Shown: one piece after another, positions 38,134 through 55,605 of the stretch
Numbering within the stretch: the first letter of the stretch is position 1
How the letters are laid out: each line of letters starts with the position of its first letter
NCBI GenBank assembly: GCA_021793215.1
Contig: JAJYTE010000008.1
Location: 14,876 to 78,875, forward strand
Source: Bacillota bacterium
Lineage (GTDB): Bacteria > Bacillota > Sulfobacillia > JAJZYS01 > JAJYTV01
Reading direction: 5' to 3'
DNA length: 64,000 nucleotides
Translations under genes and position numbers: made by a program
Notes under the pieces: generated by a model
Databases searched by the model: none
Seen by the model: the letters and a program-made list of their open reading frames with translations, nothing else
What the model was told of the DNA's origin: nothing

Positions 38134-38183
38134 CCGTGCCGTCTCGGCGCTCGCGGCCCAAGTCCAGGGTGGAACGGCTGCCG

Positions 38184-42724: not shown

Positions 42725-42749
42725 CCCGAGTCCTAGAAGGAGTGGACCC

Positions 42750-43547
42750 ATGCGCGCACCTCGCCTGCGCGGTCGCACGTTCGTCGTCTACTATGGCTAC
42801 GGCCCACTTCCGGAGATCGCCGATTACGACATCGCGATCCTGGAGCCGGCCGGTTGGCGCTCGCCGGACCTCGCGGCGCTCACGCGCCGGGGGGTGCGCC
42901 GCATTGCGTACGTCTCCGCGCTCGAGGCGACCCCGGAGACACTCCGCCGCATCGGCGTCGGTCAGCAGGACCTCCTGCGCAGCGGGGATGAACCGTGGCT
43001 GCGCGAGCAGTTCGGTACCTACGTCGTCGACCCGCGCTGCCGCCCGTGGCGCCAGCACCTGCAGCAGCAGTGCCAGCGGCTGATCGCGGAGGGATGGGAC
43101 GGGATCTTCCTCGACAGCCTCGGCGACGTCGAGGATCAGGCGGTGCAGGATCGCGCCGCGTGGCTGGTGCCTGCCGCGGCGGACCTCGTGCGGAGCGTGC
43201 GCAGCACGATCGGGCAGAGCCTTCTGCTGCAGAACAACGGGATCTTCTTCCTCCTGCCGCTCGTGGCCAAGCTCCTGGACGGGATCTGCTGGGAGGGCGA
43301 CTTCGAGCCCGAGACGACCGGTGGACCCTGGCTGCGCATGGTGCTCGAGCAGATCTCCGGCGTTGCGCGCGACGAGGGGGTTACTCCGCTTCTGCTGAGC
43401 GAAATCCCGGTAGGGGAGGGCGAAGCCTCGCGCATGGCCATGCTGCGGGATCTGAGTCAGCGCTACGGCATGCTCGCCTACTCGGCGCCGCTCGACTACG
43501 CGCGTGGCATCCGCAGCGTCGACGGCAGTGTCGTTCTGGGCAGGTAA
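42750..43547 (+). CDS. Putative GH114-like (endo-alpha-1,4-polygalactosaminidase/PelA-hydrolase-like) TIM-barrel protein.
   Basis: 265 aa. Pattern VVYYGYG...DYDIAILEP...RRIAYVSA...GWDGIFLDSLGD resembles Glyco_hydro_114. A strong GAAGGAG RBS precedes the ATG at 42750. Confidence 0.4.
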   Translation: MRAPRLRGRTFVVYYGYGPLPEIADYDIAILEPAGWRSPDLAALTRRGVRRIAYVSALEATPETLRRIGVGQQDLLRSGDEPWLREQFGTYVVDPRCRPWRQHLQQQCQRLIAEGWDGIFLDSLGDVEDQAVQDRAAWLVPAAADLVRSVRSTIGQSLLLQNNGIFFLLPLVAKLLDGICWEGDFEPETTGGPWLRMVLEQISGVARDEGVTPLLLSEIPVGEGEASRMAMLRDLSQRYGMLAYSAPLDYARGIRSVDGSVVLGR

Positions 43548-43557
43548 GGCAGGAAAA

Positions 43558-44397
43558 ATGTACATTCCTGACGTATTCCGTCGCGATGGACACGCGGCGG
43601 GAGGGAACGGCGTGGTCGTCTTCCTCATCCCAGAGTACAACGAGGAGCGGACCATCCTCGACATCCTAGGCAGGGCCGAGCCCTTCGCCGACCTCTTGGT
43701 CGTGGTGGACGACGGCTCGCACGACGACTCGCAGGCGCTCGTGCGCGGTTGGTGCGAATCGCACAGCAAGGTCGCACTGTTGAGCCACGCAAGGAACCGC
43801 GGCATGTCCGGTGCCTTGCGCACGGGCTTCCGCTACGTGCTCGACCTCGGAGCGCAAGGACTGATTGAACCGGACAGCATCGTCGTGACGCTCGACGCGG
43901 ACGGACAGCACCTGCCGGAGGAGGCGGGCCCCGCCGTCGCTGAACTCGACGCGCGCGGCGTCGACGTCCTGCTGGGACGTCGCGACCTCTCGGGCTACCC
44001 GCCCAGCAAGCAGATCGGCAACTGGCTCCTCTCGCTCTGGGCGAGCCTGCTGAGCGGATACCGTTTCCGCGACGTGGAGTGCGGATTCCGATTGATGCGC
44101 GTCGCGGTGATCGCCGACATCATGCCATTCTTCACCGGCCGGAATTACGGGTGCGCCCAGGAACTCGGCATCCTGCCCGTTCGGCGCGGCTGGAAGGTGG
44201 ACAACACCCTTCCGACCCGCGTCGCCTTCTACCGCAAGGGGGCGCGCATCCGCGATGGCCTGACCAACATGCGCATGGGCCTCGTCGCGTACCTGCGCGT
44301 CACCTTCGGCCGGATGCGGCAGGAGTCGCCAGCGGACGCCTTCGAAGTCACCTGCGATCCCGGCGTCCTGGACAAGTACGCGCTCGCGCTGCAGTGA
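43558..44397 (+). CDS. Family 2 glycosyltransferase (Dpm1/GtrB-like, GT-A fold).
   Basis: VVFLIPEYNEE...VVDDGSHDDS...TLDADGQH motifs (DxD and ED). Confidence 0.8.
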   Translation: MYIPDVFRRDGHAAGGNGVVVFLIPEYNEERTILDILGRAEPFADLLVVVDDGSHDDSQALVRGWCESHSKVALLSHARNRGMSGALRTGFRYVLDLGAQGLIEPDSIVVTLDADGQHLPEEAGPAVAELDARGVDVLLGRRDLSGYPPSKQIGNWLLSLWASLLSGYRFRDVECGFRLMRVAVIADIMPFFTGRNYGCAQELGILPVRRGWKVDNTLPTRVAFYRKGARIRDGLTNMRMGLVAYLRVTFGRMRQESPADAFEVTCDPGVLDKYALALQ

Positions 44398-45521
44398 GCC
44401 GGGCCCTCCTCACCGACGGCCTGCAGCGCAAGACGCTCGTTGCCACGCGGTCCCTTGGTCGAGCCGGCTGGCAGGTCGCCGTCGCGGACGACCGGCGCCT
44501 GAGTCTCGCCCGCTGGTCGCGGCACTGCAGCGAGGCACTGCGAAGCCCCACACCCGACGATACGGCGTACGGGGAATGGCTTTGCGCGGCTGCGCGCGGC
44601 TTCGACGTGGTGCTGCCGATGGACGACCTCTCGATGGCGGCTGCGGTCGCGCAGGGTGCGCGCCTGCCCGGTAGTCACCTCCTGCCGACGGCGGAGCAGT
44701 TCTCACTGGCGCGCGACAAGCTTCGCACCGCCGAACTCGCGGCGCGCAGCGGGGTTCCCCATCCGCGCAGCCTTGGCGTCGAGACGCAGGCCGACGTCGC
44801 GCGTGCGCGCGACGCGCTGGGCGGCGACACCGTCCTTCGGCCGCGCAAGGGTTCGGGCGGACGGGGCGTGCGCTTCCTGCCGGCGGGCGCACCGGCGCCG
44901 CGGGGGAACTTCGGGGGCCACCTCGTGCAGGAGTGCGTTCCCCTTGGGCGCAAGTTCGACGTGGGCCTGCTGTTCGGCGCAGAGGGCGACCTGCGCGCGC
45001 AGTTCTGCCAGGAGGAGCTGCGTTGGTTCCCAAGACGCCAGGACGCCAGCACGCTGCAGCGCAGCGTGGAGCGACCGGACCTCGTGGAACTCTCGGCCGA
45101 GCTCTTGCGGGAGGTGGGTTGGCGGGGTCTCGCGGAGGTGGAGTGGCAGATCGGCGCCGGGGGAACCCCGATGCTCCTCGAGGTGAACCCCCGCCCGTGG
45201 GCCTCGCTCGGCCTGGCTGTGGCGGCGGGAGTTGACTTCCCGCGCCTTTGGGCGGGCCTTGCGCTCGGCCAGGACGTGCGCGGTCCCGAGCACTATCGCA
45301 CCGACCTTCTCTGCCGCTGGTCGCTGCCGGCAGACGCGCTGCACTTCCTCCGCCACCCGCTGCGCGGGCTCGGGCAGGACGGCGGCCTGCGTCGGTCGGG
45401 CGAGCGGCTCGTCGACGACGTCATCGACCCAGGCGACCTCGGGCCGACGTTCGGCTTCGCGCTCGCGGTGCTCGGCCACGCGTTCGACCTTCGGACGTGG
45501 CGGCAGGTGATGAGGTGGTAG
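44394..45521 (+). CDS. ATP-grasp domain enzyme (carboxylate–amine/thiol ligase superfamily).
   Basis: Pre-ATP-grasp and ATP-grasp features (RPRKGSGGRGV...HLVQECVP...LAEVEWQI...MLLEVNPR). GTG start overlapping the GT2 stop by 4 nt. Confidence 0.65.
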   Translation: MSRALLTDGLQRKTLVATRSLGRAGWQVAVADDRRLSLARWSRHCSEALRSPTPDDTAYGEWLCAAARGFDVVLPMDDLSMAAAVAQGARLPGSHLLPTAEQFSLARDKLRTAELAARSGVPHPRSLGVETQADVARARDALGGDTVLRPRKGSGGRGVRFLPAGAPAPRGNFGGHLVQECVPLGRKFDVGLLFGAEGDLRAQFCQEELRWFPRRQDASTLQRSVERPDLVELSAELLREVGWRGLAEVEWQIGAGGTPMLLEVNPRPWASLGLAVAAGVDFPRLWAGLALGQDVRGPEHYRTDLLCRWSLPADALHFLRHPLRGLGQDGGLRRSGERLVDDVIDPGDLGPTFGFALAVLGHAFDLRTWRQVMRW

Positions 45522-46384
45522 ACACGCACGCGCTGACGATCGACGTGGAGCACTGGTACGACGCGACGCTCGCCGCGCGGCCCCCGAGGGTCGACCCGAG
45601 CCACGCGGAGCGCGAGCTCGATTCCATCCTCGCGCTCCTCGAGCGCCACGGCGCGCATGCGACCTTCTTCGTCCTCGGCAGCCTCGCCGAGGATCTTCCG
45701 CAGTGCGTTCGCCGGATCGCCGCGGCGGGACACGAGGTGGCCTGCCACGGTTTGACGCACGAGCTTTTGTGGCAGCTCGGGCCCGCGCGCCTGCGGGCCG
45801 AGGCGGGCAGGGCCAGGGCGCTGCTGCAGGACCTCAGTGGGCAGGAGGTCGCGGGGTTCCGCGCCCCGACCTGGTCGCTCGACCGCCGTACGCCCTGGGC
45901 CCCCGCGACCCTTCTCGCGCTCGGCTTCTCCTACGACGCGAGCGTGTTCCCGCTGCGCACCCCGCTCTACGGCGCGCCGGGCGCGCCCACCTCCCCGTAC
46001 CTGCTCGCCGGAGGAGGAGGGAGCATCCTCGAACTGCCGCCTGCGGTGCTGGAGATGGGACCGCTGCGGCTGCCCGTCGCCGGGGGGATCTACTGGCGCG
46101 TCCTCCCCGCGGGCATCGTCTCGCTGGCCCTGCGCGGGCAGTCCCCGCGCGTCCTCTACGCCCATCCCTGGGAGGCTGCGCCAGCCGGTTGGTCGCTACC
46201 TCGGTCCACGGGCTTGTCCGCGCGCTTCGCGATGCGCTTCGGGAGAGGTCACCTTGCCAAGGTCCTGGACCGATTGCTTGCAACCGTTCGCCTCGTGTCG
46301 ATCGCCGAAGCCTACGAAAATCTTGTCCGCGACGAACTTCGCACCTGGTCACTCGACGCGGCGGCGATCACTGATGGATCCTGA
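45515..46384 (+). CDS. Polysaccharide deacetylase (CE4 family with a DUF3473-like C-terminal segment).
   Basis: CE4 motifs HALTIDVEHWYD, ...HGLTHE..., ...FRAPTWS.... GTG start overlapping the ATP-grasp stop by 7 nt. Confidence 0.75.
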   Translation: MVDTHALTIDVEHWYDATLAARPPRVDPSHAERELDSILALLERHGAHATFFVLGSLAEDLPQCVRRIAAAGHEVACHGLTHELLWQLGPARLRAEAGRARALLQDLSGQEVAGFRAPTWSLDRRTPWAPATLLALGFSYDASVFPLRTPLYGAPGAPTSPYLLAGGGGSILELPPAVLEMGPLRLPVAGGIYWRVLPAGIVSLALRGQSPRVLYAHPWEAAPAGWSLPRSTGLSARFAMRFGRGHLAKVLDRLLATVRLVSIAEAYENLVRDELRTWSLDAAAITDGS

Positions 46385-48314
46385 GCACGAGGAGGTCCGG
46401 GCCGCGGAAGAAGACACTTGCACTCTGGGGATGGGCGGAGAGGAACGCCATCGCCCATGCGTAGGCGTGCGCGTCGGCGACGCGGCCGTCGGGGCCCAGG
46501 TTCTCTGCCGCCGCGAGCGAGTCCGGGACGGACTTCGCGAGGTCGGCGCGCGCAGGGCGAAGGCCGTCCGTCGTGATCCGCGGCACGTAGAGGAAGGTGT
46601 CCGGCGAGAGGATCTGAAGCGGCCAGTTCCGTGGCAGCATGCGCGGGTTTTTCGCGTCGGCCAGCGGGACCGTTCGGAGGAAGGAGCGAAGCTCCACGTG
46701 CCAGCCCTTGCCGAGCAGTTCGCTGTACTGCTCGGTGGGGGAGATCGCGGTCCACTGATAGGCTTCGTACGCGGCCTCGATGCGCCCTGTTACGACGCCG
46801 GAACCGGGCACCTCGTAGCGCGTCGTGGCCTGGACGGGCATCAGGCCGGACGCCAGGGCGCCAGCGCCCAGCAGGATCGCGAGCCCCTGCGCGGCGCGGC
46901 TCTCCTGCGGCTGGTTCGCGGCGAATGAGAAGAGCCACCCGACGAGGACCGGAACTGCGAGGAACCCGACGTACCCGCCGACGCCCAGGGTCACGCTGAG
47001 GGGAGGGGGGATCGGGAGGAGCGCCTCCGCGGCGAACGCGACCATGCAGATGCCGAAGCCGAGGAAGAGGGGCCCGTCGTCGTAGCGCCAGGCGCGCAGC
47101 GCCGTGAGCAGCATGAGGAGTCCGCTGCCGGCGAGCACGACGAGGCCGCCGGTGCCGGTGAGCCAACCCGGCACGGCGCTCGATGAGACGGCCGGCGAGG
47201 AGAGAAGCGTTGCGGCGGGCGCGTGGCCCGTGAGCAGCGCGGCGGCGAAGGGCGCGAACCCCACGGTCGCGCCGAGGAGCGCGAGTAGGGCAGCGCGTAC
47301 GCCCGCTCGCCGGCGACCGATCCACGGCAAGCCGAGGCCGACGGCGAGCAGGGCGGCGTACGGCCACGCGAGGGGCTCGAAGAGCACGGCGACGAATCCC
47401 GCGGTGCAGGCAAGCCACGCGTCCTGGGGGATGCCCCGCCGCAGGGAGCGCACGAGGAAGGCGCCTTGCGCCAGGAGGAAGACGAGCGCGGCGTGCGCGC
47501 TCAGGGGGTACCACGCGTCGAGTGAACCGCCTCCGAGCGCAGGCAGCGCCGTGAGCGCCACGAGCGTCAGCGCGACTGCTGCCGCCCAAGTGGATTCGGC
47601 GATCTCCGCTGCGAGCGCCGCTGCGGCGAGGGGCTGGAGCAGGGCGAGCAGTGGACCGAGGAAGCGCAGGACGTTCAGGGGATCGAAGAAGAAACTGGTG
47701 GACAGGAGGGCGGCGAGGATCGGGACGCCGAGCGGGTAGGCACCCGTGGTGTAGATGCCCATGTTGAGTGCGATCTGCTTCGCCGCGAGCAGTTGTTCGT
47801 AGCCGTCCGGCGTCGCGGGCACGACCTGCCCGAGCGCAGCGGGGAACTCGCGCCAGACCACGATGACCAGGACGACGAGCACCACGAGGTTCTCTGGTCG
47901 GCGAAGGCGCAATCCGGCTAGGCGCAGGGCCCTCGCCCAGCGCGCGAGCGCGTCGCGCGTGAGCGACAGGAAGGAGTGCTCGGTGTCCGGGTCCATCGCG
48001 TCGAGCGCCGAAGCCGTCCGCTCGTCGCGGGCCGCTTGGAGCTGCGGCTGCGAGAGGCGCCGGCGATGGAGGTAGCGGGCGGCCACGATCATCAGTGTGA
48101 GGGCGAGCCCGATCGTTGCGAGCTCGATGCTCGAGAGCAGCGCAAGGAGTAGGCCGAGCGCGAGCCAGATGGCCGCGCCAGCCGTCAGGAGCCGCCAGAG
48201 CGCCGTGAGAGGCGGACCCTGCGGCAGGCGGGGCAGGAGGATGTACGGCAGGAGCGCGAGCGCGGTGGCGAGTCCGATGGTGACCTGCAGCGCGGCACCG
48301 GCGGCACCGCTCAT
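46368..48314 (-). CDS. Large polytopic membrane protein (648 aa); paralog of the next gene; possible GT-C-like glycosyltransferase or polymerase.
   Basis: Hydrophobic throughout, with a ~150-aa C-terminal extracytoplasmic domain. Start MSGAAGAALQ at 48314 overlaps the upstream gene stop (ATGA). The 1559-aa track ORF to 51047 is an artefact of an open GC-rich frame. Confidence 0.5.
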   Translation of the reverse strand: MSGAAGAALQVTIGLATALALLPYILLPRLPQGPPLTALWRLLTAGAAIWLALGLLLALLSSIELATIGLALTLMIVAARYLHRRRLSQPQLQAARDERTASALDAMDPDTEHSFLSLTRDALARWARALRLAGLRLRRPENLVVLVVLVIVVWREFPAALGQVVPATPDGYEQLLAAKQIALNMGIYTTGAYPLGVPILAALLSTSFFFDPLNVLRFLGPLLALLQPLAAAALAAEIAESTWAAAVALTLVALTALPALGGGSLDAWYPLSAHAALVFLLAQGAFLVRSLRRGIPQDAWLACTAGFVAVLFEPLAWPYAALLAVGLGLPWIGRRRAGVRAALLALLGATVGFAPFAAALLTGHAPAATLLSSPAVSSSAVPGWLTGTGGLVVLAGSGLLMLLTALRAWRYDDGPLFLGFGICMVAFAAEALLPIPPPLSVTLGVGGYVGFLAVPVLVGWLFSFAANQPQESRAAQGLAILLGAGALASGLMPVQATTRYEVPGSGVVTGRIEAAYEAYQWTAISPTEQYSELLGKGWHVELRSFLRTVPLADAKNPRMLPRNWPLQILSPDTFLYVPRITTDGLRPARADLAKSVPDSLAAAENLGPDGRVADAHAYAWAMAFLSAHPQSASVFFRGPDLLVLRIHQ

Positions 48315-50293
48315 GGCGAGAGCGCGCCCAGGGACTGCAGTCCCTGGGGTTTGCTCAACTCGTACACCGTCACGTTCGGGCCGCGGAAGTAGACGGGGAG
48401 CGGACCATGCGTCCTCTCCCACGCGGCGATCCACGCGCCCAGGGCGCGCTGCGCCGCACTGCGCCGCGGCGCCACAACGCGGCGGTACTGCCGCGCGACG
48501 ACCAGTCGCCGGTCGACGAAAAGGAAGATGTGATCCTCGGAGATGGCGTAGGACGCGACGCCCCCCGCGTGGTAGACGGGCCACCGGCCGACCGTGCCGA
48601 CGTGCTGGAGAAAGGCGGAGGCGGTCATGAAGAAACCCTGGCCGTATGCGTAGTCGAAGCCGCTGTCGTCCGAGACCGCGAGCCAGGTGCCATGCGGCAG
48701 GCTCGTGCCGATCTTGACGTACGCCACGACGAAGTCGTCGGGAAGCCACCGGGACTGCGCATCCGCGCTGAGGGGCGTCGGCCGGAACTGCACCCAGGCC
48801 GCAGCGGCGATCGCGACGGCGCCGCCAAGCGCCAGCCAGCGCCCGACGCCGAAGTGCGCGAGCTCCAGGAGTTCCTGCACCGCGGAGAGACCGAGGCCGA
48901 GCGCGAGCGCTTCCGCCAGCGCGAGGAATTCTCCGGCGCGCGACGCAAGCACGAGGGAGTCGATGCCCAGGCGCGGCGCCTGCTGGATCGCGAGCGCCGA
49001 AAGCAGCACCAGAAGCCCTGCGATGGCCACCCCGAGATCGACGCGGTCGCTGCGGCGTACGAGTAGGCGCAGCCCGCGCACCAGCACGAGCGCGGCGGCG
49101 CCGGCGAGCGCGACGCGCGCCGTCAGGCTGATCGCCGGAGCGGCGGCGTGGCTTGCCGCCGCGGCGAAGGCCGCACCCGAACTGTTGAGCGGGATCCCGA
49201 GCGCCAGGGCCACGGCGATCGGCAGGAGGGCGATCAGGGCGGCGAGCGCGACCCAGCGCACGTACCAGGAGAGTGTCGCGAGGCGGACGCCGTTCGTCAG
49301 CCAGGCGCCGAGCGTCGCCGCGACGGCGGCTGCGGCGGCGTTGAGGAGGACGACGGGATGCGTCAGCGCGCACGCGAGCAGCAGGGCGAGCGCGGTGCCG
49401 CGGTGCCAGGTGCCCTTGCGTACCCAGGAGACGTAGACGAACCACAGGGTCGGCAGCACCAGCGCGTTGCCGAACTCCTGCGAATCGGTGCCGACCTGCC
49501 GGACGGCCGAGTACGGCAGGAAGTGCGGCAGCGCGCCGTAGACCAGGACGGCGACGATCGCCGGCGCGATGCGGCCACTGACGCGGTAGGTGGTGTAGCC
49601 GACCGACGCGACCATCATGATGCCGACGAGCGGGCCGAAGAACCGGATGGTCGCGATCGGGTTCGCCGCGGTGAGCCGGGCGAGGTCCGCGATCACGATG
49701 TGGAATCCCTCGGGGTAGATGCCGTTCGGGAAGAGCACCTGCGACTCGATCGCCTGTACCCAGTAGATGACGACGTCCGAGTCGGAGAAAGGGATGGCGG
49801 CGTGCGCGAGCGGGGAGGCGAGCCGCATCCACGCCGCGATGGCGAGCACGGCCAGAAGGGCAAGGGTGCCGACCACCCAGTAGAGGCTCCACCTGCGCGA
49901 CGAGCGCCCTGCGGGGCGCGGCCGCGGCCGCAGGCCGGCGAGCACGCGGGACGGCAGGCTGCCCAACTGGTCGAGCTCCGAGAGGAGGAGCGCCGCGAGG
50001 CGCGCACCGCGCCGAAGCTCGTACTCCCCGGGTGTCGCGCGCGGGCGCAGCAGGCGGACCGCGAACACCAGGAGCGCGAGCGTCAGCCAGCTGTAGATGT
50101 GCGCGGCGACGAGCGCGTACCCTGCGAGCATCAGGACGACCAGCATGCGCGCGCCGTAGCCGGCGACCGCGTCGAACGGCGCCACGCCGTCCTCGACGGC
50201 GAACGCGTAGCGCGGCCATAGGTAGAAGAGGACGATTCCGCCCACGAGGAGGCGCGCCAGCGTGGGGATCTCGATGGAGAGCGGGAACGGCAT
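48311..50293 (-). CDS. Large polytopic membrane protein (660 aa); paralog of the previous gene; possible GT-C-like enzyme.
   Basis: Shares architecture and a conserved loop with its neighbour (FPNGIYPEGFHIVIADL versus LNMGIYTTGAYPLGVPIL). Contains an acidic PFSDSD loop. Confidence 0.5.
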   Translation of the reverse strand: MPFPLSIEIPTLARLLVGGIVLFYLWPRYAFAVEDGVAPFDAVAGYGARMLVVLMLAGYALVAAHIYSWLTLALLVFAVRLLRPRATPGEYELRRGARLAALLLSELDQLGSLPSRVLAGLRPRPRPAGRSSRRWSLYWVVGTLALLAVLAIAAWMRLASPLAHAAIPFSDSDVVIYWVQAIESQVLFPNGIYPEGFHIVIADLARLTAANPIATIRFFGPLVGIMMVASVGYTTYRVSGRIAPAIVAVLVYGALPHFLPYSAVRQVGTDSQEFGNALVLPTLWFVYVSWVRKGTWHRGTALALLLACALTHPVVLLNAAAAAVAATLGAWLTNGVRLATLSWYVRWVALAALIALLPIAVALALGIPLNSSGAAFAAAASHAAAPAISLTARVALAGAAALVLVRGLRLLVRRSDRVDLGVAIAGLLVLLSALAIQQAPRLGIDSLVLASRAGEFLALAEALALGLGLSAVQELLELAHFGVGRWLALGGAVAIAAAAWVQFRPTPLSADAQSRWLPDDFVVAYVKIGTSLPHGTWLAVSDDSGFDYAYGQGFFMTASAFLQHVGTVGRWPVYHAGGVASYAISEDHIFLFVDRRLVVARQYRRVVAPRRSAAQRALGAWIAAWERTHGPLPVYFRGPNVTVYELSKPQGLQSLGALSP

Positions 50294-50305
50294 GCGGGCC
50301 CTCCT

Positions 50306-51943
50306 CTAGACCATGCGGTAGAGCATGAAGTCGATGCGCGGCAGGAGACGAAGAATCTCTACCGTCGTCAGGACGACGAGGCAGGCGACGCCTGCGATCA
50401 GGCCGACGACCGCGAACTGGTAGGCGTTGAAGACGCGGGTCGCGATGATTCCGACCGTGACGTCGACCGCGACCGCCAGCAAGAGGGAGCGCAGGGCGGG
50501 CTGCGGGTGCGCGAGGCCGAACATCACGAGGATGTTGAACAGCGACAGGGCAAGGAAGACGTAGGCGAAACTTGACCAGGAGAAGACGAAGGGCTCGACG
50601 CCGGTCACCGGAACCGCAGCGCGCAGCAGCGGTATCTGGTGCGCGAGGGACACCCCGAAGCGGATCAGGATCAGCCCGACGACCGCGACGAGCAGGAATC
50701 CGCCGACCGCCCGCAGGTACACGGAGCGCATCGCCCGCGCGAGGTCCTCGACGCGGTGCTCGAGGGCACGGTGCTGCGCGACCATCAGCCAGCGGATCAG
50801 GTAACCAACGAACGCCTCGGTCGCCGCCAGGGGAAGGATCAGCGAGGCGAGCGACCAGTCCATCCCGAGTTCGTACTGGCCGCGGAACCAGATGCTGTAC
50901 GGCAGGAAGGTGGTAGCGGTCGTCCAGGCGACGAGGCGGTCCGCGAAGATGAAGATGAAGTAGAGGATGCCGTAGAAGAAGTAGGTGCTGGTCGCGTAGG
51001 CAAGCTGCGAGGTGCGCGTCTTCACGATGCGCCCGGCGTGCTGCCACTGGCGGCTCTGGCGCCGGAAGATCACGAGCCAGGCCAGTACCGCGCCCACGGT
51101 GGCGGCGGCCATGGCGATGACCTGCGCCAGGATGACGCTATGGGCCTCGCGCCAGATGACGTACGCGATGAGGACCGCGCCGAGCGTGAGGAGCGTCAGC
51201 ATGTACTCGCGCCGCAGCACGTAGAGGCTCGCGTACGCCAGCCAGAGCACCGAGAGCATGACCATGTAGACGACCATGAACGTGACCAGCGAAAAGGGGA
51301 AGATCGGGAAGACGCTGTCGCCGATGAGGATCGCGACGGCGACGAGGATGGCCATAGTTGCGCCCCAGCGCATGACCTGGAAAAGCATGCGCTCGACGAG
51401 GGCGGCCTCCTGCAGGCCGACCAGCAGGTAGTAGGTCGTGGCCATCGCTTGGGAGAAGCCGCCCGTGACGACGAAGCTGAGGAAGGTCGCGATGCCGAGC
51501 ACCGTGGCCTGCGCCACGGAGAAGTACTGGAACGACGAGATGCTGATGTGGAGGATGACCATCGACCCGATGGACACCGCCATGGGCATCGCGAACGTGA
51601 ACCCGTGGAGGAAGTCCGCCGCGACGAGGCGGAACATCTTGAACCAGGAGACCTCCGCGCGCGGCGGCAGGGGGACGTTGCGCACCGAGACGTTGTACTC
51701 CTCGTAGAGCTCCTCCGCGAGGTCGAACACGCTCGGGCTGCCGAACACCTCGTCGACGCGCTGGTCGCTCCAGCCGAGCGACTCGATCGTCGCTGCGACG
51801 TCAAGGCTGTCCTGCAGGTCGCCGTTCGCCTCGACCACGGAGCGCAGCAACTTGGCCCGTGCATCGCGGCTGCGCGCGGACGCCGACCCCTGACCGACGG
51901 CGCTGCCCAATCGCTCACACCCCAGTCGTTGGCGCGTAGACAT
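50306..51943 (-). CDS. Polytopic membrane protein (~546 aa) with a ~100-aa cytoplasmic N-terminus; possible exopolysaccharide export/assembly protein.
   Basis: About 12 hydrophobic segments. Divergent from the PelF-like GT4 across a 185-bp intergenic region. The start is ATG 51943 or TTG 51949. The PelG-like functional guess comes from context only. Confidence 0.4.
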   Translation of the reverse strand: MSTRQRLGCERLGSAVGQGSASARSRDARAKLLRSVVEANGDLQDSLDVAATIESLGWSDQRVDEVFGSPSVFDLAEELYEEYNVSVRNVPLPPRAEVSWFKMFRLVAADFLHGFTFAMPMAVSIGSMVILHISISSFQYFSVAQATVLGIATFLSFVVTGGFSQAMATTYYLLVGLQEAALVERMLFQVMRWGATMAILVAVAILIGDSVFPIFPFSLVTFMVVYMVMLSVLWLAYASLYVLRREYMLTLLTLGAVLIAYVIWREAHSVILAQVIAMAAATVGAVLAWLVIFRRQSRQWQHAGRIVKTRTSQLAYATSTYFFYGILYFIFIFADRLVAWTTATTFLPYSIWFRGQYELGMDWSLASLILPLAATEAFVGYLIRWLMVAQHRALEHRVEDLARAMRSVYLRAVGGFLLVAVVGLILIRFGVSLAHQIPLLRAAVPVTGVEPFVFSWSSFAYVFLALSLFNILVMFGLAHPQPALRSLLLAVAVDVTVGIIATRVFNAYQFAVVGLIAGVACLVVLTTVEILRLLPRIDFMLYRMV

Positions 51944-52128
51944 TGCCAAATTGATGATAGCAGTGGCAAACTATTCCGTACATGGTGAAAGAAGATCCCG
52001 TCCCTGTCGTCAATTAGAGGACGGAGGCTTCCAGTCCTTCCTTTTCGCGGTATGCATTGGCCAATACACGAAGCGATGCGCCGTAAATCGCTGGACTGCA
52101 ACTCCCAGTCTTCGGGAGGTGATCCGAG

Positions 52129-53883
52129 GTGGCCCGCAAACTTCGCGTGCTGTTGGCGACCGAGGGCACCTATCCGTATCACCTGGGCGGCGTGAGCACG
52201 TGGTGCGATGCGCTGGTGCACCGACTCGACGACATCGACTTCACGGTCTTCGCCGTGGCGATGAACCCGTTCGTGCGTAGCCGATTCACCTTCCCGCCAA
52301 GCGTCCGCGGGATCGTCACAGTGCCTCTCTGGGGGACGCAGGATCCTTCCGAGCACAAGGAGCAGATGCCTTTCTCGGAGATCTTCCTGCAGAAGCAGCG
52401 CACGACGGAGGAGCAGATCGAGCGCGGGTTCCTGCCCGAGCTGATGCAGATCCTGACGCAGATGCGCTGCGACGGCGCCCGGCCCGAGGCGGTCGGGAAC
52501 GCGCTCGCCGGTTTGCACCGCCATTTCCAGACCTTCGACTACCGGCAGACGTTCAAGTCGCCGCTCGTCTGGCAGGCCTTCCGGGACTTCCTGCAGACGG
52601 CCGCCGACGAGGGCCTTTGGCCGGAGCCGAGCGTCTTTGAGGCCGTCCAGGCACTCGGCTGGGTCTACCACTTCTTCACGGTGCTGAACACGCCGATCCC
52701 AGAGGTGGACGTTGTGCACTCGTCGGCGGCCGCGTTCTGCGGCATGGCAGGGGTCGTGGCCAAGGTGGAGTACGGCACCCCACTTCTGCTCACCGAGCAC
52801 GGCGTCTACCTGCGCGAGCAGTACCTCTCGGTGGGTCGCAGCAACATGAGCCGATTCTCCAAACGGTTCCTCATCGCGATAGTGCGGACGATCGTGCGCA
52901 CGAACCTCTACTACGCGGACGTCGTGGCTCCGGTGTGCAGCTTCAACGCGCGCTGGGAGCGACTGCTCGGCGTAAGGGGCGAACGCATCTCCGTCGTCTA
53001 CAACGGGGTCTCGTCCGATGTCTTCGCCCCCAGAACGCAGCGGAGCGAGGGTCCCCTTCGACTGCTCGCCGTGGCGCGCAGCGACCCCAACAAGGACATC
53101 GAGACGCTGCTGCGCGCGATGGCGATCATCCATCGCCATCTCCCCGACGTGCGCCTCGACATCCGGGGATCTGTCTCGGTGCCCGACTACCATACCCGCA
53201 TGCTGGCACTTTGCACGGAGCTCGGGATCGACGATGTCGTCGTGTTCGGCGGCCACACCGAAGACCCAGCGGCGCTCTACCGTGAGGCAGATGTGCTCGT
53301 CCAGTCGAGTGTGTCCGAGGGGTTCCCCTACGCGGTGATCGAGGGTATGATGAGCGGCCTGCCGGTCGTCGCGACGGACGTGGGCGGGACGTCGGAGGCG
53401 GTCGCGGACACGGGCATCACGGTGCCCGCCCAGGATCCGGCTCGCCTCGCGGCGGCCCTGATCATCGTGCTGCAGGACGAGGACCTGCGCGCGCGGCTCG
53501 GTGAGGCGGCGCGGGAGCGGGCCCTGAACCTCTTCACCATCCGTCGCTCTGCCAGCGAGTACATGGACCTCTACACGGCGCTGGCGGGCGGCGAGGTGCC
53601 GCAGGTCGCGCTGCCGGCCGGCGCGCGCCGAGGCGTCTCTTTGAAGCCGGCGAGCACCGCCCAACTGGTGCATCTTCAGAAGGCCCTCGCGCTTCGGCGG
53701 CTCGGCATGCCGGTCGCCGCGCTCGACCAGCTCTCTCGCGCGCTCGCGGCAGCCCCGAACGCCGGCGCGGCATCCGCGATCCTTGCGCAGGTCGCGGAGA
53801 TCGAGCGAGAACTCGGCCATGGGGCCGACGCCCTCGAGCACCTCGCGAGCGCGTGGCTGATCTCGCAGGTCCAAAGCGCCTGA
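52129..53883 (+). CDS. pelF: GT4 glycosyltransferase of the PelF type (DUF3492 N-domain plus GT1_4 C-domain).
   Basis: N-terminus RVLLATEGTYPYHLGGVSTWCDALV matches the PelF hallmark (EGTYPY..GGVS.W). C-terminal GT4 EX7E region (VQSSVSEGFPYAVIEGMMSGLPVVATDVGG). Confidence 0.7.
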   Translation: MARKLRVLLATEGTYPYHLGGVSTWCDALVHRLDDIDFTVFAVAMNPFVRSRFTFPPSVRGIVTVPLWGTQDPSEHKEQMPFSEIFLQKQRTTEEQIERGFLPELMQILTQMRCDGARPEAVGNALAGLHRHFQTFDYRQTFKSPLVWQAFRDFLQTAADEGLWPEPSVFEAVQALGWVYHFFTVLNTPIPEVDVVHSSAAAFCGMAGVVAKVEYGTPLLLTEHGVYLREQYLSVGRSNMSRFSKRFLIAIVRTIVRTNLYYADVVAPVCSFNARWERLLGVRGERISVVYNGVSSDVFAPRTQRSEGPLRLLAVARSDPNKDIETLLRAMAIIHRHLPDVRLDIRGSVSVPDYHTRMLALCTELGIDDVVVFGGHTEDPAALYREADVLVQSSVSEGFPYAVIEGMMSGLPVVATDVGGTSEAVADTGITVPAQDPARLAAALIIVLQDEDLRARLGEAARERALNLFTIRRSASEYMDLYTALAGGEVPQVALPAGARRGVSLKPASTAQLVHLQKALALRRLGMPVAALDQLSRALAAAPNAGAASAILAQVAEIERELGHGADALEHLASAWLISQVQSA

Positions 53884-53953
53884 CGCAAGAAGCATCGTCC
53901 AACGGGCGCCCGCAGCGGGGCGCCCCCACGGCAGGCGATGGGGGGGGCAGGCG

Positions 53954-54661
53954 TTGGTCGCGATCGCGCTCGGACTGGTCCTCGGCTGGGTCGGCGCTGG
54001 GCTGCTCACCCGCCTGTCGGAGTACCTGGCCTCCGGACGAGCGTTGCTCGGCCCCCCGCACTGCCCGGGCTGCGGCGCGGCGCTCCGGGGGCCGAACCTA
54101 CCGCTCGTTGCGCGGAGTTGCCCCGCCTGCGGTGCGCGCGCAAAGCCTCCGATCTGGCTTGAGGCCGCGGCGATCGGAGGCACTGCGGTCGTCGTCTGGC
54201 GGCTGTGGGGCACTCCCGAGATCTTCGTCGGTGTCTTGGTGCTCTGGCTCGCGATCGCCTCTACCGCCATCGACATGCGCCTGCGCATCATCCCGAACCG
54301 CCTTCTGGCCGGTGCGGCGCTGCTCGGGCTCCTCGCGATGATCCCGCTCGGCGCGGGAGCCTTCGCGCAGGGCGCGCTCGGTACTGTCGTTCTCTTCGCC
54401 GTCGCAGCCCTTCTGGCGGTGGTCGGACGGGGCGGCTTCGGTTTCGGCGACGTGAAGTACCTCGCCGTCGTCGGGCTGCTGCTCGGGCTCGATGCAGGGA
54501 TCGTCAGCCTGCTCGCCGCGGTGCTGCTCGGTGGGCTCTACGCCGCCATGCTGCTGGCGACGCGGCGGGCCGGCCGCAAGGACACGTTCGCCTTCGCGCC
54601 GTTCATCGCCATCGGTTCAGTCGCGGTGCTGATGCTCTGGCACCTGCCACCCGGGCACTGA
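53954..54661 (+). CDS. A24-family prepilin peptidase (PilD/ComC-like).
   Basis: N-terminal zinc-ribbon-like CPGCGA...CPACGA, then the IIPNRL and GFGDVKYL catalytic Asp motifs. 8 transmembrane-like segments. Confidence 0.75.
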   Translation: MVAIALGLVLGWVGAGLLTRLSEYLASGRALLGPPHCPGCGAALRGPNLPLVARSCPACGARAKPPIWLEAAAIGGTAVVVWRLWGTPEIFVGVLVLWLAIASTAIDMRLRIIPNRLLAGAALLGLLAMIPLGAGAFAQGALGTVVLFAVAALLAVVGRGGFGFGDVKYLAVVGLLLGLDAGIVSLLAAVLLGGLYAAMLLATRRAGRKDTFAFAPFIAIGSVAVLMLWHLPPGH

Positions 54662-54663
54662 AC

Positions 54664-55605
54664 TCAGGCCAGACGACCCTCGCTGCGCAGGCGCGCAAGG
54701 TGCTCCACCGTCCGGGCGAGCCCTTCGTCCAGCGGCACGTCTGGACGCCAGTGCAGCTCGTCTGCGGCGCGGCGCGGATCGAGCACGCTGCGCCGCACTT
54801 CTCCTGGCCGCTCCGGCTCGCGCAGGGACGGCGCATGCACCCCCATCAGGTCGCAAAGGCGCACGTAGAGCTCGTTGACGGACGTCTCGAGGCCGCTCCC
54901 GATGTGCAGCGTCGCGCCGTCCGCTGCGTTTAGGGCCGCGACGTTCGCCGCGGCCACGTCGCCGACGTAGACGTAGTCGCGGGTCTGCTCGCCGTCCCCG
55001 AAGATGCGGCTGGGGCGCCCGAGCAGCAGGTTGCGGATGAAGATGGCGACGACGCCGCCCTCGCCGGTGGGGTCCTGGCGCGGTCCGTAGACGTTGGCGT
55101 AGCGGAGCGACGTGCAGGCGAGCCCCCGCTGGGACGAGTAGAGGTCGAGGTATAGTTCAACCGCGCGCTTCGCCACGCCGTAGGGCGAGAGCGGGGCGAC
55201 CTTGTCCTCCTCCTTCACCGGAAGCTCCTGCGGTTCGCCGTAGATGGCGCCGCCGCTCGAGGCGAACACGACCTTGCGGGCGCCGACCGCCGCGGCGCAC
55301 TCGATCACCTGCAGGCTCCCGAGGATGTTCACCCGGGCGTCGAAGACGGGATCCTTGGTCGACGTGCGCACGTCGACCTGGGCCGCGAGGTGGACGACCG
55401 CCTCGGGGCGCTCCTGCTCCAGAATCTCCCGCAGCGCCTGGCCATCGGTGATGTCCGCCTCGTGGAAGCGCGCAAGCGGACTGACCTGCGGCGCTTGGCC
55501 GCGGGAGAGGTTGTCCACGACCGCGACCTGGTGGCCCTGCGCGAGAAGGAGATCGACCGTGTGCGACCCGATGAACCCGGCGCCACCCGTGACGAGGACC
55601 CGCAT
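54664..55605 (-). CDS. NAD-dependent epimerase: UDP-glucose/UDP-GlcNAc 4-epimerase (GalE/PelX-like SDR).
   Basis: The Rossmann motif VTGGAGFIGSH and the catalytic YxxxK (YGVAK) are present. Confidence 0.85.
   Translation of the reverse strand: MRVLVTGGAGFIGSHTVDLLLAQGHQVAVVDNLSRGQAPQVSPLARFHEADITDGQALREILEQERPEAVVHLAAQVDVRTSTKDPVFDARVNILGSLQVIECAAAVGARKVVFASSGGAIYGEPQELPVKEEDKVAPLSPYGVAKRAVELYLDLYSSQRGLACTSLRYANVYGPRQDPTGEGGVVAIFIRNLLLGRPSRIFGDGEQTRDYVYVGDVAAANVAALNAADGATLHIGSGLETSVNELYVRLCDLMGVHAPSLREPERPGEVRRSVLDPRRAADELHWRPDVPLDEGLARTVEHLARLRSEGRLA

Follow-up and report, generated by a model that had tools for sequence, protein, structure and literature searches.

Does a gene cluster of an uncultured, high-GC Bacillota lineage encode a Pel- or galactosaminogalactan (GAG)-like exopolysaccharide system, as its first-pass annotation proposed, and what do its other genes contribute? 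We addressed this question in a 64,000-nucleotide stretch of contig JAJYTE010000008.1 (hereafter, the window), assigning families by means of Pfam and NCBIfam model searches. The locus is a real and conserved surface-polysaccharide cassette in which a Pel core is combined with a putative module for decoration by lipid-linked sugars and with an enzyme that degrades c-di-GMP, and we lean toward reading 37.6-53.9 kb of the window as one single conserved cassette of three modules. All previously listed open reading frames and their positions were supported by GC3 frame analysis and by the gene calls of the source assembly, and the earlier family calls for PelF, the GH114-like hydrolase, CE4, HD-GYP, GT2, ATP-grasp, and the epimerase were upheld by Pfam, NCBIfam, and PDB matches.

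RESULTS

The Pel-type core

The gene at 52129..53883 (+ strand) encodes a PelF-type GT4 (DUF3492 + GT1), with Pfam matches to DUF3492 (3.4e-39) and Glycos_transf_1 (8.9e-31) and a ~100-aa C-terminal tail bearing one TPR-like repeat (TPR_14, 1.2e-4). As it exceeds the cut-off of the NCBIfam PelF model NF038011 (132 bits versus 100), the protein is PelF rather than a generic GT4. In the pel literature consulted, PelF is reported to polymerize UDP-GalNAc as part of a synthase-type complex that also contains PelD, PelE, and PelG. A distant PelG homologue is encoded at 50306..51949 (- strand); it has a MOP-superfamily fold and a ~100-aa cytoplasmic N-terminal helical domain, displays no Pfam or NCBIfam match, and is too diverged for a direct match to Pfam PelG.

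The third component, at 42750..43547 (+ strand), is a PelA-hydrolase-like (GH166/GH114-clan) TIM-barrel glycosidase of 265 aa. Its match to Pfam Glyco_hydro_114 is weak (9e-5, under the Pfam cut-off), and the PelA hydrolase domain in the PDB was matched at 3e-9 with the single sequence and at 1e-22 with the family profile, for which other PDB matches were TM1410 (5e-6) and a GH114 domain (6e-5). Two acidic residues are invariant, i.e., D122, which aligns with catalytic D160 of PaPelA, and E182, which aligns with the Glu of the PelA "GWE" motif (taken as E218 by approximate offset counting); catalytic residues are likewise conserved in the CE4, HD-GYP, and GT-C proteins described below. Relatives of the hydrolase carry PF03537, and one is annotated as an endo-alpha-1,4-polygalactosaminidase. 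We looked for a hydrophobic N terminus or signal peptide and found none, so that the enzyme cannot reach an exported polymer. The TIM-barrel and GH114-clan similarity claimed earlier holds, but the protein is nearer to PelA_h (GH166) than to Ega3-type GH114. Together, PelF, PelG, and the PelA_h-like hydrolase constitute a Pel-type core. In contrast, PelD, PelE, and GGDEF domains were not detected by Pfam among the 48 window ORFs scanned, bearing out the reported absence of PelD and PelE.

Two GT-C-fold glycosyltransferases

PelG is one of three large membrane proteins that had been described as uncharacterized. They are indeed polytopic and without Pfam or NCBIfam matches, but the other two can now be assigned: they are paralogous GT-C-fold glycosyltransferases, i.e., a 660-aa protein with a C-terminal extracytoplasmic alpha/beta domain (48311..50293, - strand) and its diverged, 648-aa paralogue (46368..48314, - strand). 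In phmmer searches, the latter matched 81 family representatives found with the profile of the former (best, 1.4e-20), their PD/YP.G/GP motif blocks align, and a conserved Asp is present in the GT-C enzyme fold of both. The best structural matches include the oligosaccharyltransferases STT3, PglB, and AglB, as well as PMTs; the underlying model has a moderate pLDDT of 70.9, and its catalytic loop, including D171, is the least confident part. The 648-aa paralogue is conserved in 10 related loci (L002, L005, L006, L007, L008, L011, L016, L019, L021, and L022).

A coupled GT2, ATP-grasp, and CE4 module

Between the hydrolase gene and the CE4 gene lie a GT2 and an ATP-grasp gene, and the reported overlaps of their start and stop codons are real (44394-44397 for GT2 and ATP-grasp, 45515-45521 for ATP-grasp and CE4). 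The soluble GT2 (43558..44397, + strand; called shorter, at 261 aa, in the same frame in the source assembly) matches Glycos_transf_2 at 3.5e-17. Its best NCBIfam models were PpgS (1.4e-13), dolichyl-P hexose transferase, ArnC, PgfS, and AglJ, all far under their cut-offs, and its best PDB matches were ArnC (6e-7) and DPMS (2.7e-4); these similarities place it among enzymes of the polyprenyl-phosphate-sugar synthase kind (ArnC/DPMS/PpgS-like). The ATP-grasp ligase (44394..45521, + strand; ATPgrasp_Ter, 2.4e-12; ATP-grasp_3, 2e-6) is translationally coupled to both GT2 and CE4, and its gene adjoins that of CE4 in the window and in L002, L005, L019, L021, and L022. The CE4 deacetylase (45515..46384, + strand) is of the XrtA-system type with a DUF3473 domain (Polysacc_deac_1 PF01522, 2.6e-20; PF11959, 1.8e-22; TIGR03006, 201 bits against a cut-off of 276), and its catalytic and metal-binding motifs (D10/E12, H78/H82, R116, and H217) are invariant in four homologues. 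Both GT2 and CE4 score far under the equivalog cut-offs of all named NCBIfam models, and their substrate is not readable from sequence.

No signal peptide, transmembrane segment, or membrane anchor was detected in CE4 or in any aligned homologue, nor any signal peptide or transmembrane segment in GT2 and ATP-grasp. Since export signals are absent from all four enzymes, i.e., hydrolase, GT2, ATP-grasp, and CE4, the last probably does not deacetylate polymer outside the cell as PelA does. By analogy to GacIJKL, PpgS/Rv3779, and ArnC/D/T, it more likely edits a lipid-linked sugar that would later be transferred, outside the membrane, by the GT-C enzymes; a cytoplasmic CE4 acting between GT2 and GT-C would be the counterpart of ArnD in the Arn pathway. 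We therefore rejected an extracytoplasmic PelA_DA/Agd3-type role for this cytoplasmic enzyme coupled to GT2 and ATP-grasp, and the partially de-N-acetylated, cationic polymer proposed in the first-pass annotation is not indicated by that route. CE4 and ATP-grasp are accessory, because a methyltransferase replaces them in L016 and both are missing from L006.

HD-GYP phosphodiesterase and other neighboring genes

Upstream of the hydrolase, as previously noted, an intact HD-GYP-type cyclic-dinucleotide phosphodiesterase is encoded at 41129..42724 (+ strand; HD_5/HD, 8.9e-32). The translation shows both the HD and the HHExxDGxGYP motif (HHERWDGHGYP), and its PDB matches were V-cGAP3 (9e-23), PmGH (8e-18), and PA4781 (8e-16). 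The ~340-aa N-terminal sensor region is GAF-like by homology to relatives (GAF_3 matches in the homologues of L019, L020, and L021). The protein aligns over its full length with those of L016 and L019, and the gene is co-conserved in nine loci (L006, L007, L008, L016, L017, L019, L020, L021, and L022).

The + strand operon begins with a small (180 aa) DivIVA-like coiled-coil protein (37591..38133) with an N-terminal "FGYSRR" motif. It has no Pfam match itself, and homologues lie beside or inside the PelF-PelG loci of L007, L008, L016, and L019, that of L019 matching Pfam DivIVA weakly. It is followed by a large (593 aa) DivIVA-like coiled-coil protein (38136..39917, + strand) with a conserved C-terminal segment of ~60 aa and, probably, a PRC-barrel-like segment; its homologues adjoin the locus in L006, L008, L009, L011, L016, L019, L021, and L022, that of L019 matching PRC-barrel PF05239 (8.6e-5) and, weakly, DivIVA. 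The next operon gene (39914..41116, + strand), the start of which overlaps the preceding stop by 4 nt, encodes a 400-aa polytopic membrane protein with ~9 hydrophobic segments. It had been called a Wzx-like flippase, a designation that we withdraw: it has no Pfam or NCBIfam match and no similarity to Wzx, MurJ, the MurJ fusion of L011, or the PelG profile, and it is absent from the related loci compared.

The 4-epimerase (54664..55605, - strand) is indeed of the GalE family of UDP-hexose 4-epimerases (Epimerase, 3e-66; TIGR01179, 195 bits against a cut-off of 262; best PDB match, the UDP-glucose 4-epimerase 4zrm, 2e-89) and possibly supplies precursors. Its membership in the locus is uncertain, however, as its synteny is confined to the closest relatives (L001, L002, L004, L005, and L012), the gene being missing from L007, L008, L011, and L016-L022. 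A prepilin peptidase also shows no co-conservation with the locus beyond close relatives.

Co-conservation across genomes

The gene set stays together despite rearrangement in more than 15 Bacillota metagenomic loci, being kept through inversions and reshuffling in L002-L011 and recurring in a Sulfobacillus MAG (L016) and in L019. In L021 and L022, both reached from arbitrarily chosen distant members of the GT-C family, the genes for PelF, coiled-coil protein(s), PelG, GT-C, ATP-grasp, CE4, MurJ, GT2, DUF2304, and HD-GYP form a collinear operon; L021 extends past HD-GYP, with a GH114-type hydrolase next. The PelF-PelG-GT-C triad also occurs in Bacteroidota (L020) and Acidobacteriota (Thermoanaerobaculia, L018), often with HD-GYP and hydrolase alongside, and the GT-C gene directly follows PelG in the window, L016, L018, L019, L020, L021, and L022. 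In Balneolaceae L017, a 658-aa protein of unconfirmed homology is a candidate at the GT-C position. Sister loci carry a MurJ-type flippase and a DUF2304 partner, neither of which is encoded in the window. Because the genes are co-conserved, and given the TIM-barrel similarity of the hydrolase and the assignment of PelF, the earlier proposal of a Pel-like locus is not refuted.

DISCUSSION

Proposed mechanism and alternatives

The family or fold of each protein, operon coupling, the absence of export signals, and co-conservation were determined here; we infer which sugars are used, how the steps are ordered, what the acceptor is, which flippase serves this genome, and in which direction c-di-GMP acts. 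In the favored model, cytoplasmic PelF would build a hexosamine-type chain from UDP-sugar, MOP-fold PelG would provide its passage across the membrane, and the PelA_h-like glycosidase would trim it. A second module, of the GacI/J/K/L, PpgS-Rv3632-Rv3779, or ArnC/D/T type, would supply lipid-linked sugar decoration: the soluble GT2 would load HexNAc onto polyprenyl phosphate, the CE4/DUF3473 enzyme would take off the acetyl group, and the ATP-grasp ligase would re-derivatize the freed amine or ligate another carboxylate or amine, whereupon the lipid-linked sugar would be flipped and transferred by the two GT-C-fold proteins, on the outer face of the membrane, to an acceptor, either the Pel-like chain or some other envelope component. 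As regulator, the GAF-like/HD-GYP phosphodiesterase may substitute for PelD in coupling the machinery to c-di-GMP. The DivIVA-like coiled-coil proteins also belong to the cassette. Several observations weigh against this model: the window encodes neither a MurJ-type flippase nor DUF2304, and its 400-aa membrane protein resembles no flippase; a hydrolase devoid of a signal peptide could not act on an exported chain; the GT-C model is of limited confidence around the catalytic loop; and CE4 and ATP-grasp are accessory. Moreover, Bacteroidota loci L017 and L020 have no GT2 within 10 kb, yet L020 retains a confirmed GT-C homologue, so that GT-C may serve the PelFG machinery in a more fundamental way than by adding side chains.

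Among the alternatives, all of which we regard as unlikely, we give most weight to a lipid-carrier pathway in which PelF would assemble a glycan on polyprenyl, PelG would act as a Wzx-like flippase, and GT-C would polymerize the glycan or ligate it outside the membrane to an envelope acceptor (protein, peptidoglycan, or a secondary polymer), GT2, CE4, and ATP-grasp being optional decoration. The structural matches of GT-C to oligosaccharyltransferases and PMTs are consistent with this scheme, as is its position directly after PelG in the window and six other loci, L020 with no GT2 within 10 kb among them; moreover, the MurJ-type second MOP protein of sister loci could serve the GT2 branch, freeing PelG for the PelF product. 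However, the locus has no priming phosphoglycosyltransferase and indicates no acceptor, and the literature places PelF in a synthase-type complex. Slightly less probable is a Gram-positive Pel/GAG-type system in which CE4 would be the PelA_DA/Agd3 equivalent, de-N-acetylating an exported GalNAc polymer and so rendering it cationic, with the membrane proteins replacing PelD and PelE. The Pel-type core, the nearby GalE, and the separate PelA_H and PelA_DA genes of Bacillus cereus Pel favor it, whereas CE4 lacks a signal peptide or anchor in every homologue aligned, belongs to the DUF3473/XrtA-type subfamily rather than the PelA esterase class, defined as new family CE21 (PMC12022489), is coupled to GT2 and ATP-grasp instead of PelF/PelG, and is dispensable in L016 and L006; in addition, GT-C enzyme folds, both with a conserved Asp, were recognized in two of the three membrane proteins.

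In the window, the genes of the locus are distributed over convergent and divergent transcription units, a wide range of envelope polymers is decorated by GT2/GT-C modules, and accessory genes differ among loci (CE4/ATP-grasp versus methyltransferase), all of which would fit two unrelated neighbors, i.e., a minimal PelFG exopolysaccharide locus next to a GacIJKL-like module acting on wall polysaccharide, teichoic acid, or S-layer protein. We consider this improbable: in at least 12 loci, the modules remain neighbors even though genes have been inverted or reordered; they form one collinear gene string in L019, L021, and L022 and have GT-C adjoining PelG in three phyla, and the two distant GT-C members, chosen arbitrarily, were both located in PelF/PelG loci. 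Very improbable is another earlier suggestion, namely, that the product is a polysaccharide of the spore surface (crust or exosporium) and not a biofilm matrix polymer. In its favor are the Bacillota host lineage, a SpoVK-like AAA gene at 19896-21131, and the proximity of L021 to bofC, but the conserved cassette contains no sporulation gene, gene neighbors vary among loci, the triad occurs in non-sporulating Bacteroidota and Acidobacteriota, and no sporulation-type promoter evidence was obtained.

Comparison with known systems

Separate hydrolase and deacetylase genes, regarded earlier as a departure from pel operons, have already been described for Gram-positive pel loci, with galE as accessory; the B. 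cereus ATCC 10987 locus is pelDEA_DAFG plus accessory pelA_H and galE (PMC7112168). With that locus, the window has in common homologues of PelF and PelG, a PelA_h-like hydrolase encoded on its own and not together with any deacetylase, a nearby GalE-family gene, and a link to c-di-GMP metabolism. In contrast, it lacks PelD (a TM-GAF-degenerate GGDEF receptor), PelE, membrane-anchored PelA_DA, and the signal sequence carried by B. cereus PelA_H, its PelG is too diverged for Pfam, and it adds two GT-C proteins, the polyprenyl-P-sugar-type GT2, the cytoplasmic CE4/DUF3473 enzyme, ATP-grasp, and in-locus HD-GYP and DivIVA-like proteins. Similarly, Pseudomonas aeruginosa pelABCDEFG shares the PelF/PelG core and a PelA GH166 domain with which the hydrolase aligns, whereas the window lacks the outer-membrane export proteins PelB/PelC, PelD, PelE, and the PelA esterase domain and adds the GT-C, GT2, CE4, ATP-grasp, HD-GYP, and DivIVA-like genes.

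A polyprenyl-P-sugar-type GT2 together with GT-C transferase(s) is common to the window, GacIJKL, PpgS-Rv3632-Rv3779, and ArnC/ArnD/ArnE-F/ArnT. The similarity is at superfamily level only, the GT-C family not being that of GacL, ArnT, or Rv3779; unlike these pathways, the window lacks DUF2304 and a recognizable flippase, adds an ATP-grasp step without counterpart, and has a Pel-like chain as presumed acceptor. The experimentally characterized GacI/J/K/L system of the Streptococcus pyogenes group A carbohydrate side chain comprises GT2, DUF2304, Wzx/MurJ, and GT-C (10.1101/180810), and DUF2304 also partners PpgS in M. tuberculosis (PMC3485146); sister loci, but not the window, resemble GacIJKL in also having DUF2304 (GacJ/Rv3632) and a flippase of the MOP type.

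In the searchable literature, we found no description of a Pel core combined with lipid-linked decoration and a c-di-GMP phosphodiesterase, in agreement with the view that the arrangement is undescribed. Clusters whose recognition depends solely on a conserved pelFG pair, in the absence of a full pel operon, have been described before. In the part of the epsSMASH report considered here, pel-like clusters are resolved by its authors as distant homologues of canonical pelABCDEFG genes; neither that part nor the corresponding text of a second paper mentions a GT-C partner, HD-GYP, or a GT2/CE4/ATP-grasp module.

Finally, of the earlier Pel/GAG-like designation, the Pel half stands, whereas membership in the fungal GAG class does not, nor does a cationic polymer via CE4. 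No Agd3 (CE18)-, Gtb3-, or Sph3 (GH135)-type protein was detected in the locus, and its resemblance to the fungal cluster (Uge3, Gtb3, Agd3, Ega3, Sph3) is by analogy only, i.e., in the shared logic of epimerase, transferase, deacetylase, and endo-alpha-1,4-galactosaminidase-clan hydrolase. The hydrolase profile itself matches the solved GH114 TIM-barrel domain far more weakly than it does PelA_h.

Gene organization of the locus

The G+C content of the window is ~70% and raw ORF lists are therefore crowded with spurious frames; the gene map was taken from third-position GC analysis, and the gene calls of the source assembly, a 155.8-kb metagenome contig from ENA, gave nearly identical proteins. 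A plus-strand operon (37591-46384), in which genes overlap or are separated by gaps of ≤25 nt, encodes in order two coiled-coil proteins, a 400-aa membrane protein, an HD-GYP protein, a hydrolase, a GT2, an ATP-grasp protein and a CE4 protein. Converging on it is a three-gene membrane-protein operon (51949-46368, minus strand), whose final stop overlaps that of CE4, such that the ends of the two genes share 17 nt (46368-46384); no terminator-like structure was found between the two operons in this segment. A divergent unit, with PelF as its first gene, starts at 52129 on the plus strand. Scanning 36-55.8 kb for promoters and terminators revealed no signal exceeding shuffled expectation.

The first-pass annotation had read 42750-55605 as a Pel- or galactosaminogalactan (GAG)-like locus, and all of its family calls are backed by Pfam and NCBIfam, the sole exception being a "Wzx-like flippase." For that 400-aa protein (39914-41116), neither Pfam nor NCBIfam returned any match even at E ≤ 1, BLASTP showed no likeness to the MurJ fusion protein of a related Bacillota/Clostridia locus (L011), and hhalign showed none to the PelG profile. 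We rejected the label, and the protein is not conserved in related loci; only its operon position would allow for a flippase role.

A Pel variant with PelF, PelG and a PelA hydrolase-like enzyme

The assignment of a PelF-type GT4 to 52129-53883 was borne out, since the protein carries both DUF3492 (PF11997, 3.4e-39) and a glycosyltransferase domain (PF00534, 8.9e-31), as does PelF, the cytoplasmic GT4 of Pel systems in which DUF3492 is N-terminal, and passes the equivalog cut-off of NCBIfam NF038011 (132 bits versus 100). The 547-aa membrane protein encoded at 50306-51949 (minus strand) has no direct Pfam match itself, and it matches PF16933-carrying or PelG-named proteins at 4e-58 to 2e-34 over ~95% of its length; the Pfam PelG model is matched by 8 of the 34 members of its family. 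It is a distant homologue of PelG, a 12-TM MOP-type inner membrane protein.

The hydrolase (42750-43547) had been called GH114-like. That similarity exists, although the Pfam GH114 score (22 bits) lies under the cut-off of 27, and the closer relationship is to PelA. As a single sequence the protein matches the solved PelA hydrolase domain (PelA_h) at 3e-9, and a profile of its 23-sequence family reaches 1e-22 with the whole domain covered, TM1410 and GH114 domains scoring far weaker; among PDB entries, PelA_h is favored over a GH114 domain by 17 orders of magnitude. The invariant D122 aligns with D160 of PaPelA, and the invariant E182 with the Glu of the PelA "GWE" motif, which we take, from a rough count of the offset, to be E218; mutation of D160 and E218 has been used to abolish PelA hydrolase activity (PMC12022489). 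The profile match and the aligned Asp/Glu pair argue for an enzyme like PelA_h (GH166, an endo-alpha-1,4-N-acetylgalactosaminidase type) rather than an Ega3-like one, though one devoid of an export signal. Such a signal is present in PelA, in B. cereus PelA_H and in the Bacteroidota counterparts, in contrast to the Bacillota hydrolases. Among Bacillota-type homologues, 32 of 32 begin at the first barrel strand and lack a signal peptide, and two Bacteroidota homologues (L017 13222-14088; L020 5949-6800) have lipoprotein-like signals.

Other Pel components were not found. None of the 48 window ORFs matched PelD (the membrane-bound c-di-GMP receptor, with GAF plus degenerate GGDEF) or any GGDEF domain in Pfam, and neither was found among the genes listed for seven further loci reached via PelG or GT-C homologues (L016-L022). 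PelE (a small inner-membrane protein with TM and TPR-like parts) likewise had no match, in agreement with the annotated absence of PelD and PelE; the sole TPR-like element is a repeat in a soluble tail of PelF. This C-terminal tail of ~100 aa (residues 483-584, window 53575-53883) contains a single TPR-like repeat (TPR_14, 1.2e-4); it is found in Bacillota-type PelF (578-589 aa) and is absent from PelF of Bacteroidota and Acidobacteriota (501-526 aa). The tail could substitute for a PelE-like interaction surface. Nor was an extracytoplasmic de-N-acetylase of the PelA_DA type found, the sole esterase being the CE4 protein (45515-46384; PF01522 plus DUF3473). Its family call stands, with the metal and catalytic motifs preserved, but the polymer-modifying role attached to it is unlikely: the protein has no signal peptide or TM segment, and a cytoplasmic CE4 cannot be a PelA_DA- or Agd3-type deacetylase of an exported polymer. 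The PelA esterase itself has been described as a family of its own, CE21 (PMC12022489).

The locus therefore has three defining Pel features (PelF, PelG and PelA_h) and lacks three others (PelD, PelE and PelA_DA), and we class it as a Pel variant, neither a strict Pel member nor a GAG system. The likeness to GAG systems did not hold, as the hydrolase is below the GH114 cut-off expected of an Ega3-type enzyme and Pfam and NCBIfam scans of the window ORFs yielded neither an Agd3-type CE18 nor a Sph3-type GH135. Separate hydrolase and deacetylase genes, seen in the first-pass annotation as a departure from pel operons, are not one: Gram-positive pel loci have been described before with PelA_H and PelA_DA as separate genes and with galE as an accessory (PMC7112168). 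"pelFG-only" or "pel-like" clusters are also on record (PMC7112194; epsSMASH preprint). In the literature searched, no description was found in which PelFG is associated with a GT-C family, with an HD-GYP protein in the same locus or with a GT2/CE4/ATP-grasp module.

A large unannotated GT-C family with members next to PelG

The remaining two proteins of the minus-strand operon have the features of GT-C membrane enzymes. For the 660-aa protein encoded at 48311-50293 (minus strand), which has a GT-C membrane fold, an exhaustive profile search recovered a family of 511 clusters at 50% identity, ~650 aa in length and all unannotated, with remote members giving faint PMT_2 and DUF6541 signals and nothing else. 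Of 147 aligned members, 97% have D171, and the nearby W178, Y193-P194, G196 and G220-P221 are conserved as well. D171 directly follows a TM segment (137-166) that is preceded by an Arg-rich stretch; by the positive-inside rule this places the Arg-rich side inside, and hence the D171 loop is predicted to be outside. The catalytic acid of GT-C enzymes lies in the first outer loop, the place that this predicted topology gives to D171. Confidence in the structural model is moderate, with the catalytic loop poorly modeled.

The neighboring 648-aa protein (46368-48314, minus strand) matches 81 representatives of the same family (best 1.4e-20) and has the motif block in common with it. Compared directly by BLASTP, the two proteins give only a 40-residue match (8e-4), and hmmsearch with a narrow profile gave no match between them, even with filters off; their homology was established transitively, through common family representatives and aligned motifs, by which the 648-aa protein is judged a diverged paralogue. 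In the closest relatives the 660-aa-type gene is duplicated in tandem (L002 4227-8205, L004 2-2977, L005 4266-8205), giving three GT-C genes each.

Conservation across loci and phyla

The analysis was carried out wholly in silico, and the carriers found are all metagenomic. Scanning with PelF, limited to a single genome for each species, gave 12 loci of close relatives, each in a MAG of uncultured Bacillota or Clostridia; their gene content was determined by tblastn. PelG and the GT-C genes adjoin PelF wherever the sequence covers that side (L002-L008 and L011). The HD-GYP/hydrolase/GT2/ATP-grasp block is inverted yet still adjacent in L007 and L008, GT2 lies immediately upstream of PelF in L009-L011, and in L011 PelF is followed downstream by CE4, both GT-C genes and PelG.

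The association extends to more distant loci. A Sulfobacillus acidophilus MAG (L016) encodes PelF / PelG, GT-C, HD-GYP, hydrolase, GT2, methyltransferase and GT-C, and L019 has the complete window gene set as a single string. PelF, PelG, GT-C and GT2 occur in a Thermoanaerobaculia genome (L018), and PelF, PelG, HD-GYP, hydrolase and a 658-aa protein in one of Balneolaceae (L017). In a Bacteroidota genome (L020), a GT-C homologue accompanies PelF and PelG, and a GAF/HD-GYP gene and a hydrolase lie nearby. Homology in L016-L020 was confirmed by phmmer, except for the 658-aa protein, which had no match. Two arbitrarily chosen distant GT-C members (n = 2 sampled; L021 and L022) both lie in collinear PelF/PelG operons, in the order PelF, coiled-coil gene(s), PelG, one or two GT-C genes, ATP-grasp, CE4/DUF3473, MurJ, GT2, DUF2304 and HD-GYP; beyond this, L021, the only one of the two that extends so far, has a GH114-type hydrolase. 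Throughout, GT-C abuts PelG.

In the Bacteroidota loci, GT-C is followed by a DUF2194 protein of ~1,280-1,300 aa (L017 16174-20067; L020 17774-21604), with TPR matches in L020. By analogy with PelB, it may be an outer-membrane or periplasmic export component.

HD-GYP and coiled-coil proteins

The HD-GYP protein (41129-42724; PF13487, 8.9e-32) has intact HD metal-binding and HHExxDGxGYP motifs ("LHDIGM" and "HHERWDGHGYP") and matches solved HD-GYP phosphodiesterases at 9e-23 to 8e-16. The whole of its ~340-aa N-terminal region can be aligned with the HD-GYP homologues encoded within L016 and L019. Since Pfam returned nothing significant for this region or for the coiled-coil proteins of the window, their nature was deduced from homologues in L019, L020 and L021, where the HD-GYP proteins have GAF matches. 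The constant presence of HD-GYP, together with the lack of PelD or GGDEF among the 48 window ORFs, suggests that this protein is the cyclic-dinucleotide interface of the system, in which it may serve as enzyme, sensor or both. An HD-GYP enzyme, and not a GGDEF-type receptor, would then be central to an exopolysaccharide machine; to our knowledge, little is known of c-di-GMP signaling in Bacillota.

Conserved alongside PelF-PelG (L016 5904-8004; L019 8241-9935; L021 5240-6385) are two DivIVA-like coiled-coil ORFs (37591-39917, plus strand) whose N-terminal motif is "FGY(S/R)R". One homologue has a PRC-barrel match, and collinear loci place these genes between PelF and PelG. The proteins suggest spatial targeting of the machinery.

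Possible roles of the GT-C enzymes and the GT2/ATP-grasp/CE4 module

The GT2 (43558-44397), ATP-grasp (44394-45521) and CE4 genes overlap start to stop, and no signal peptide or TM segment was found in their products or in the hydrolase. The NCBIfam models nearest to GT2 are PpgS, archaeal dolichyl-P hexose transferase, ArnC, PgfS and AglJ, and its nearest PDB structures are ArnC and DPMS; all are polyprenyl-phosphate glycosyltransferases, with scores far under equivalog cut-offs. For CE4, the closest model is the XrtA-system deacetylase (201 bits versus a cut-off of 276).

In the Arn pathway, the CE4-family ArnD stands between a GT2 and a GT-C. Addition of the GlcNAc side chain in S. pyogenes has been shown experimentally to employ a GT2, a DUF2304 protein, a MOP flippase and a GT-C: GacI makes Und-P-GlcNAc and is stimulated by GacJ (DUF2304), GacK is the proposed flippase and GacL (GT-C) transfers the sugar, loss of gacL leading to a build-up of lipid-linked intermediates (10.1101/180810). 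Galactosamine is added to mycobacterial arabinogalactan by a comparable GT2, DUF2304 and GT-C set (PpgS, Rv3632 and Rv3779; PMC3485146). The sister loci L021 and L022 have both DUF2304 and MurJ, and L011 a MurJ fusion, whereas the window has neither component: tblastn of the L021/L022 proteins against the whole window gave none at E ≤ 0.01. On these architectures and the position of ArnD, we infer that, at the cytoplasmic face, CE4 and ATP-grasp may edit a sugar linked to lipid, first deacetylating it and then carrying out an ATP-dependent ligation, and that the GT-C enzymes would deliver it to the chain made by PelF/PelG. The GT-C donor would be a polyprenyl-phosphate-linked sugar, to which the co-conserved GT2 and the DUF2304 and MurJ genes of the sister loci point indirectly. 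The Pel-like polymer predicted from the locus would be decorated with an amino sugar that had been deacetylated and re-ligated while on its lipid carrier, a chemistry we did not find reported for Pel-family polymers in the literature searched.

Four facts do not fit neatly with such editing and decoration: MurJ and DUF2304 are lacking in the window; no GT2 lies within 10 kb of the Bacteroidota loci L017 and L020, even though L020 has a confirmed GT-C homologue; GT-C invariably abuts PelG; and the PelA_h-like enzyme of Bacillota is signal-less and probably cytoplasmic. Because of them we keep open a further explanation, which we nevertheless consider improbable, namely that the cross-phylum PelF-PelG-GT-C triad is a second mode of Pel-type assembly, in which PelG would flip a lipid-linked PelF product, GT-C would polymerize or ligate it on the outer face and GAF/HD-GYP would stand in PelD's place. 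Pel, a partially de-N-acetylated alpha-1,4-GalNAc polymer, is among the most widespread bacterial biofilm polysaccharides, and we know of no resolution of how the soluble GT4 PelF and the MOP-type PelG polymerize and export its chain. Were this second mode true, the role of PelG and soluble-GT4-driven export would become directly testable, and it would be asked whether canonical Pel is truly synthase-type. A PelFG able to run without PelD, PelE and PelA_DA, paired with the 511-cluster GT-C family, offers a natural comparison for PelG function, and folds and likely roles can now be assigned to three unannotated protein families.

The accessory genes vary. Directly downstream of PelF, L011 encodes a MurJ-type flippase fused to a class I methyltransferase (11524-13998), and L016 has a stand-alone methyltransferase in place of CE4 and ATP-grasp, so the decoration module differs among lineages in its accessory chemistry. 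L006 has an unannotated 347-aa ORF instead of GT2, ATP-grasp and CE4.

Flanking genes

The upstream half of the window holds housekeeping genes, for which no link to the Pel-like locus was found: mutS-mutL-miaA (10585-15676), a SpoVK-like AAA protein (19896-21131), hflX (23534-24748), lexA (28623-29429) and an ECF-type sigma factor and, after it, a familyless 338-aa ORF (33744-35448). Immediately upstream of the cassette, a 416-aa ORF (36289-37539, plus strand) with a lipoprotein-like N terminus (…AIAAGC) has no family match and was not found in related loci.

Downstream, GalE (54664-55605, minus strand) was rejected as a core component because it is not co-conserved; it probably has Ser at the GalE gatekeeper position (E. 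coli Tyr299). GalE and the prepilin peptidase, SLT, HDAC and Pat-like genes are syntenic in the closest relatives only, and are probably neighbors rather than components. Between the GalE and HDAC genes, a 402-aa protein (55654-56862, minus strand) has a C-terminal SLT lytic transglycosylase domain, preceded by a long coiled coil (with a PcsB-like hint) and a segment resembling a signal anchor. The HDAC-family deacetylase (56887-58041, minus strand; PF00850, 2e-90) is divergent from a gene for a Pat-like protein that joins GNAT to an ADP-forming acyl-CoA synthetase (58128-60593, plus strand), and the pair looks like a protein-acetylation switch.
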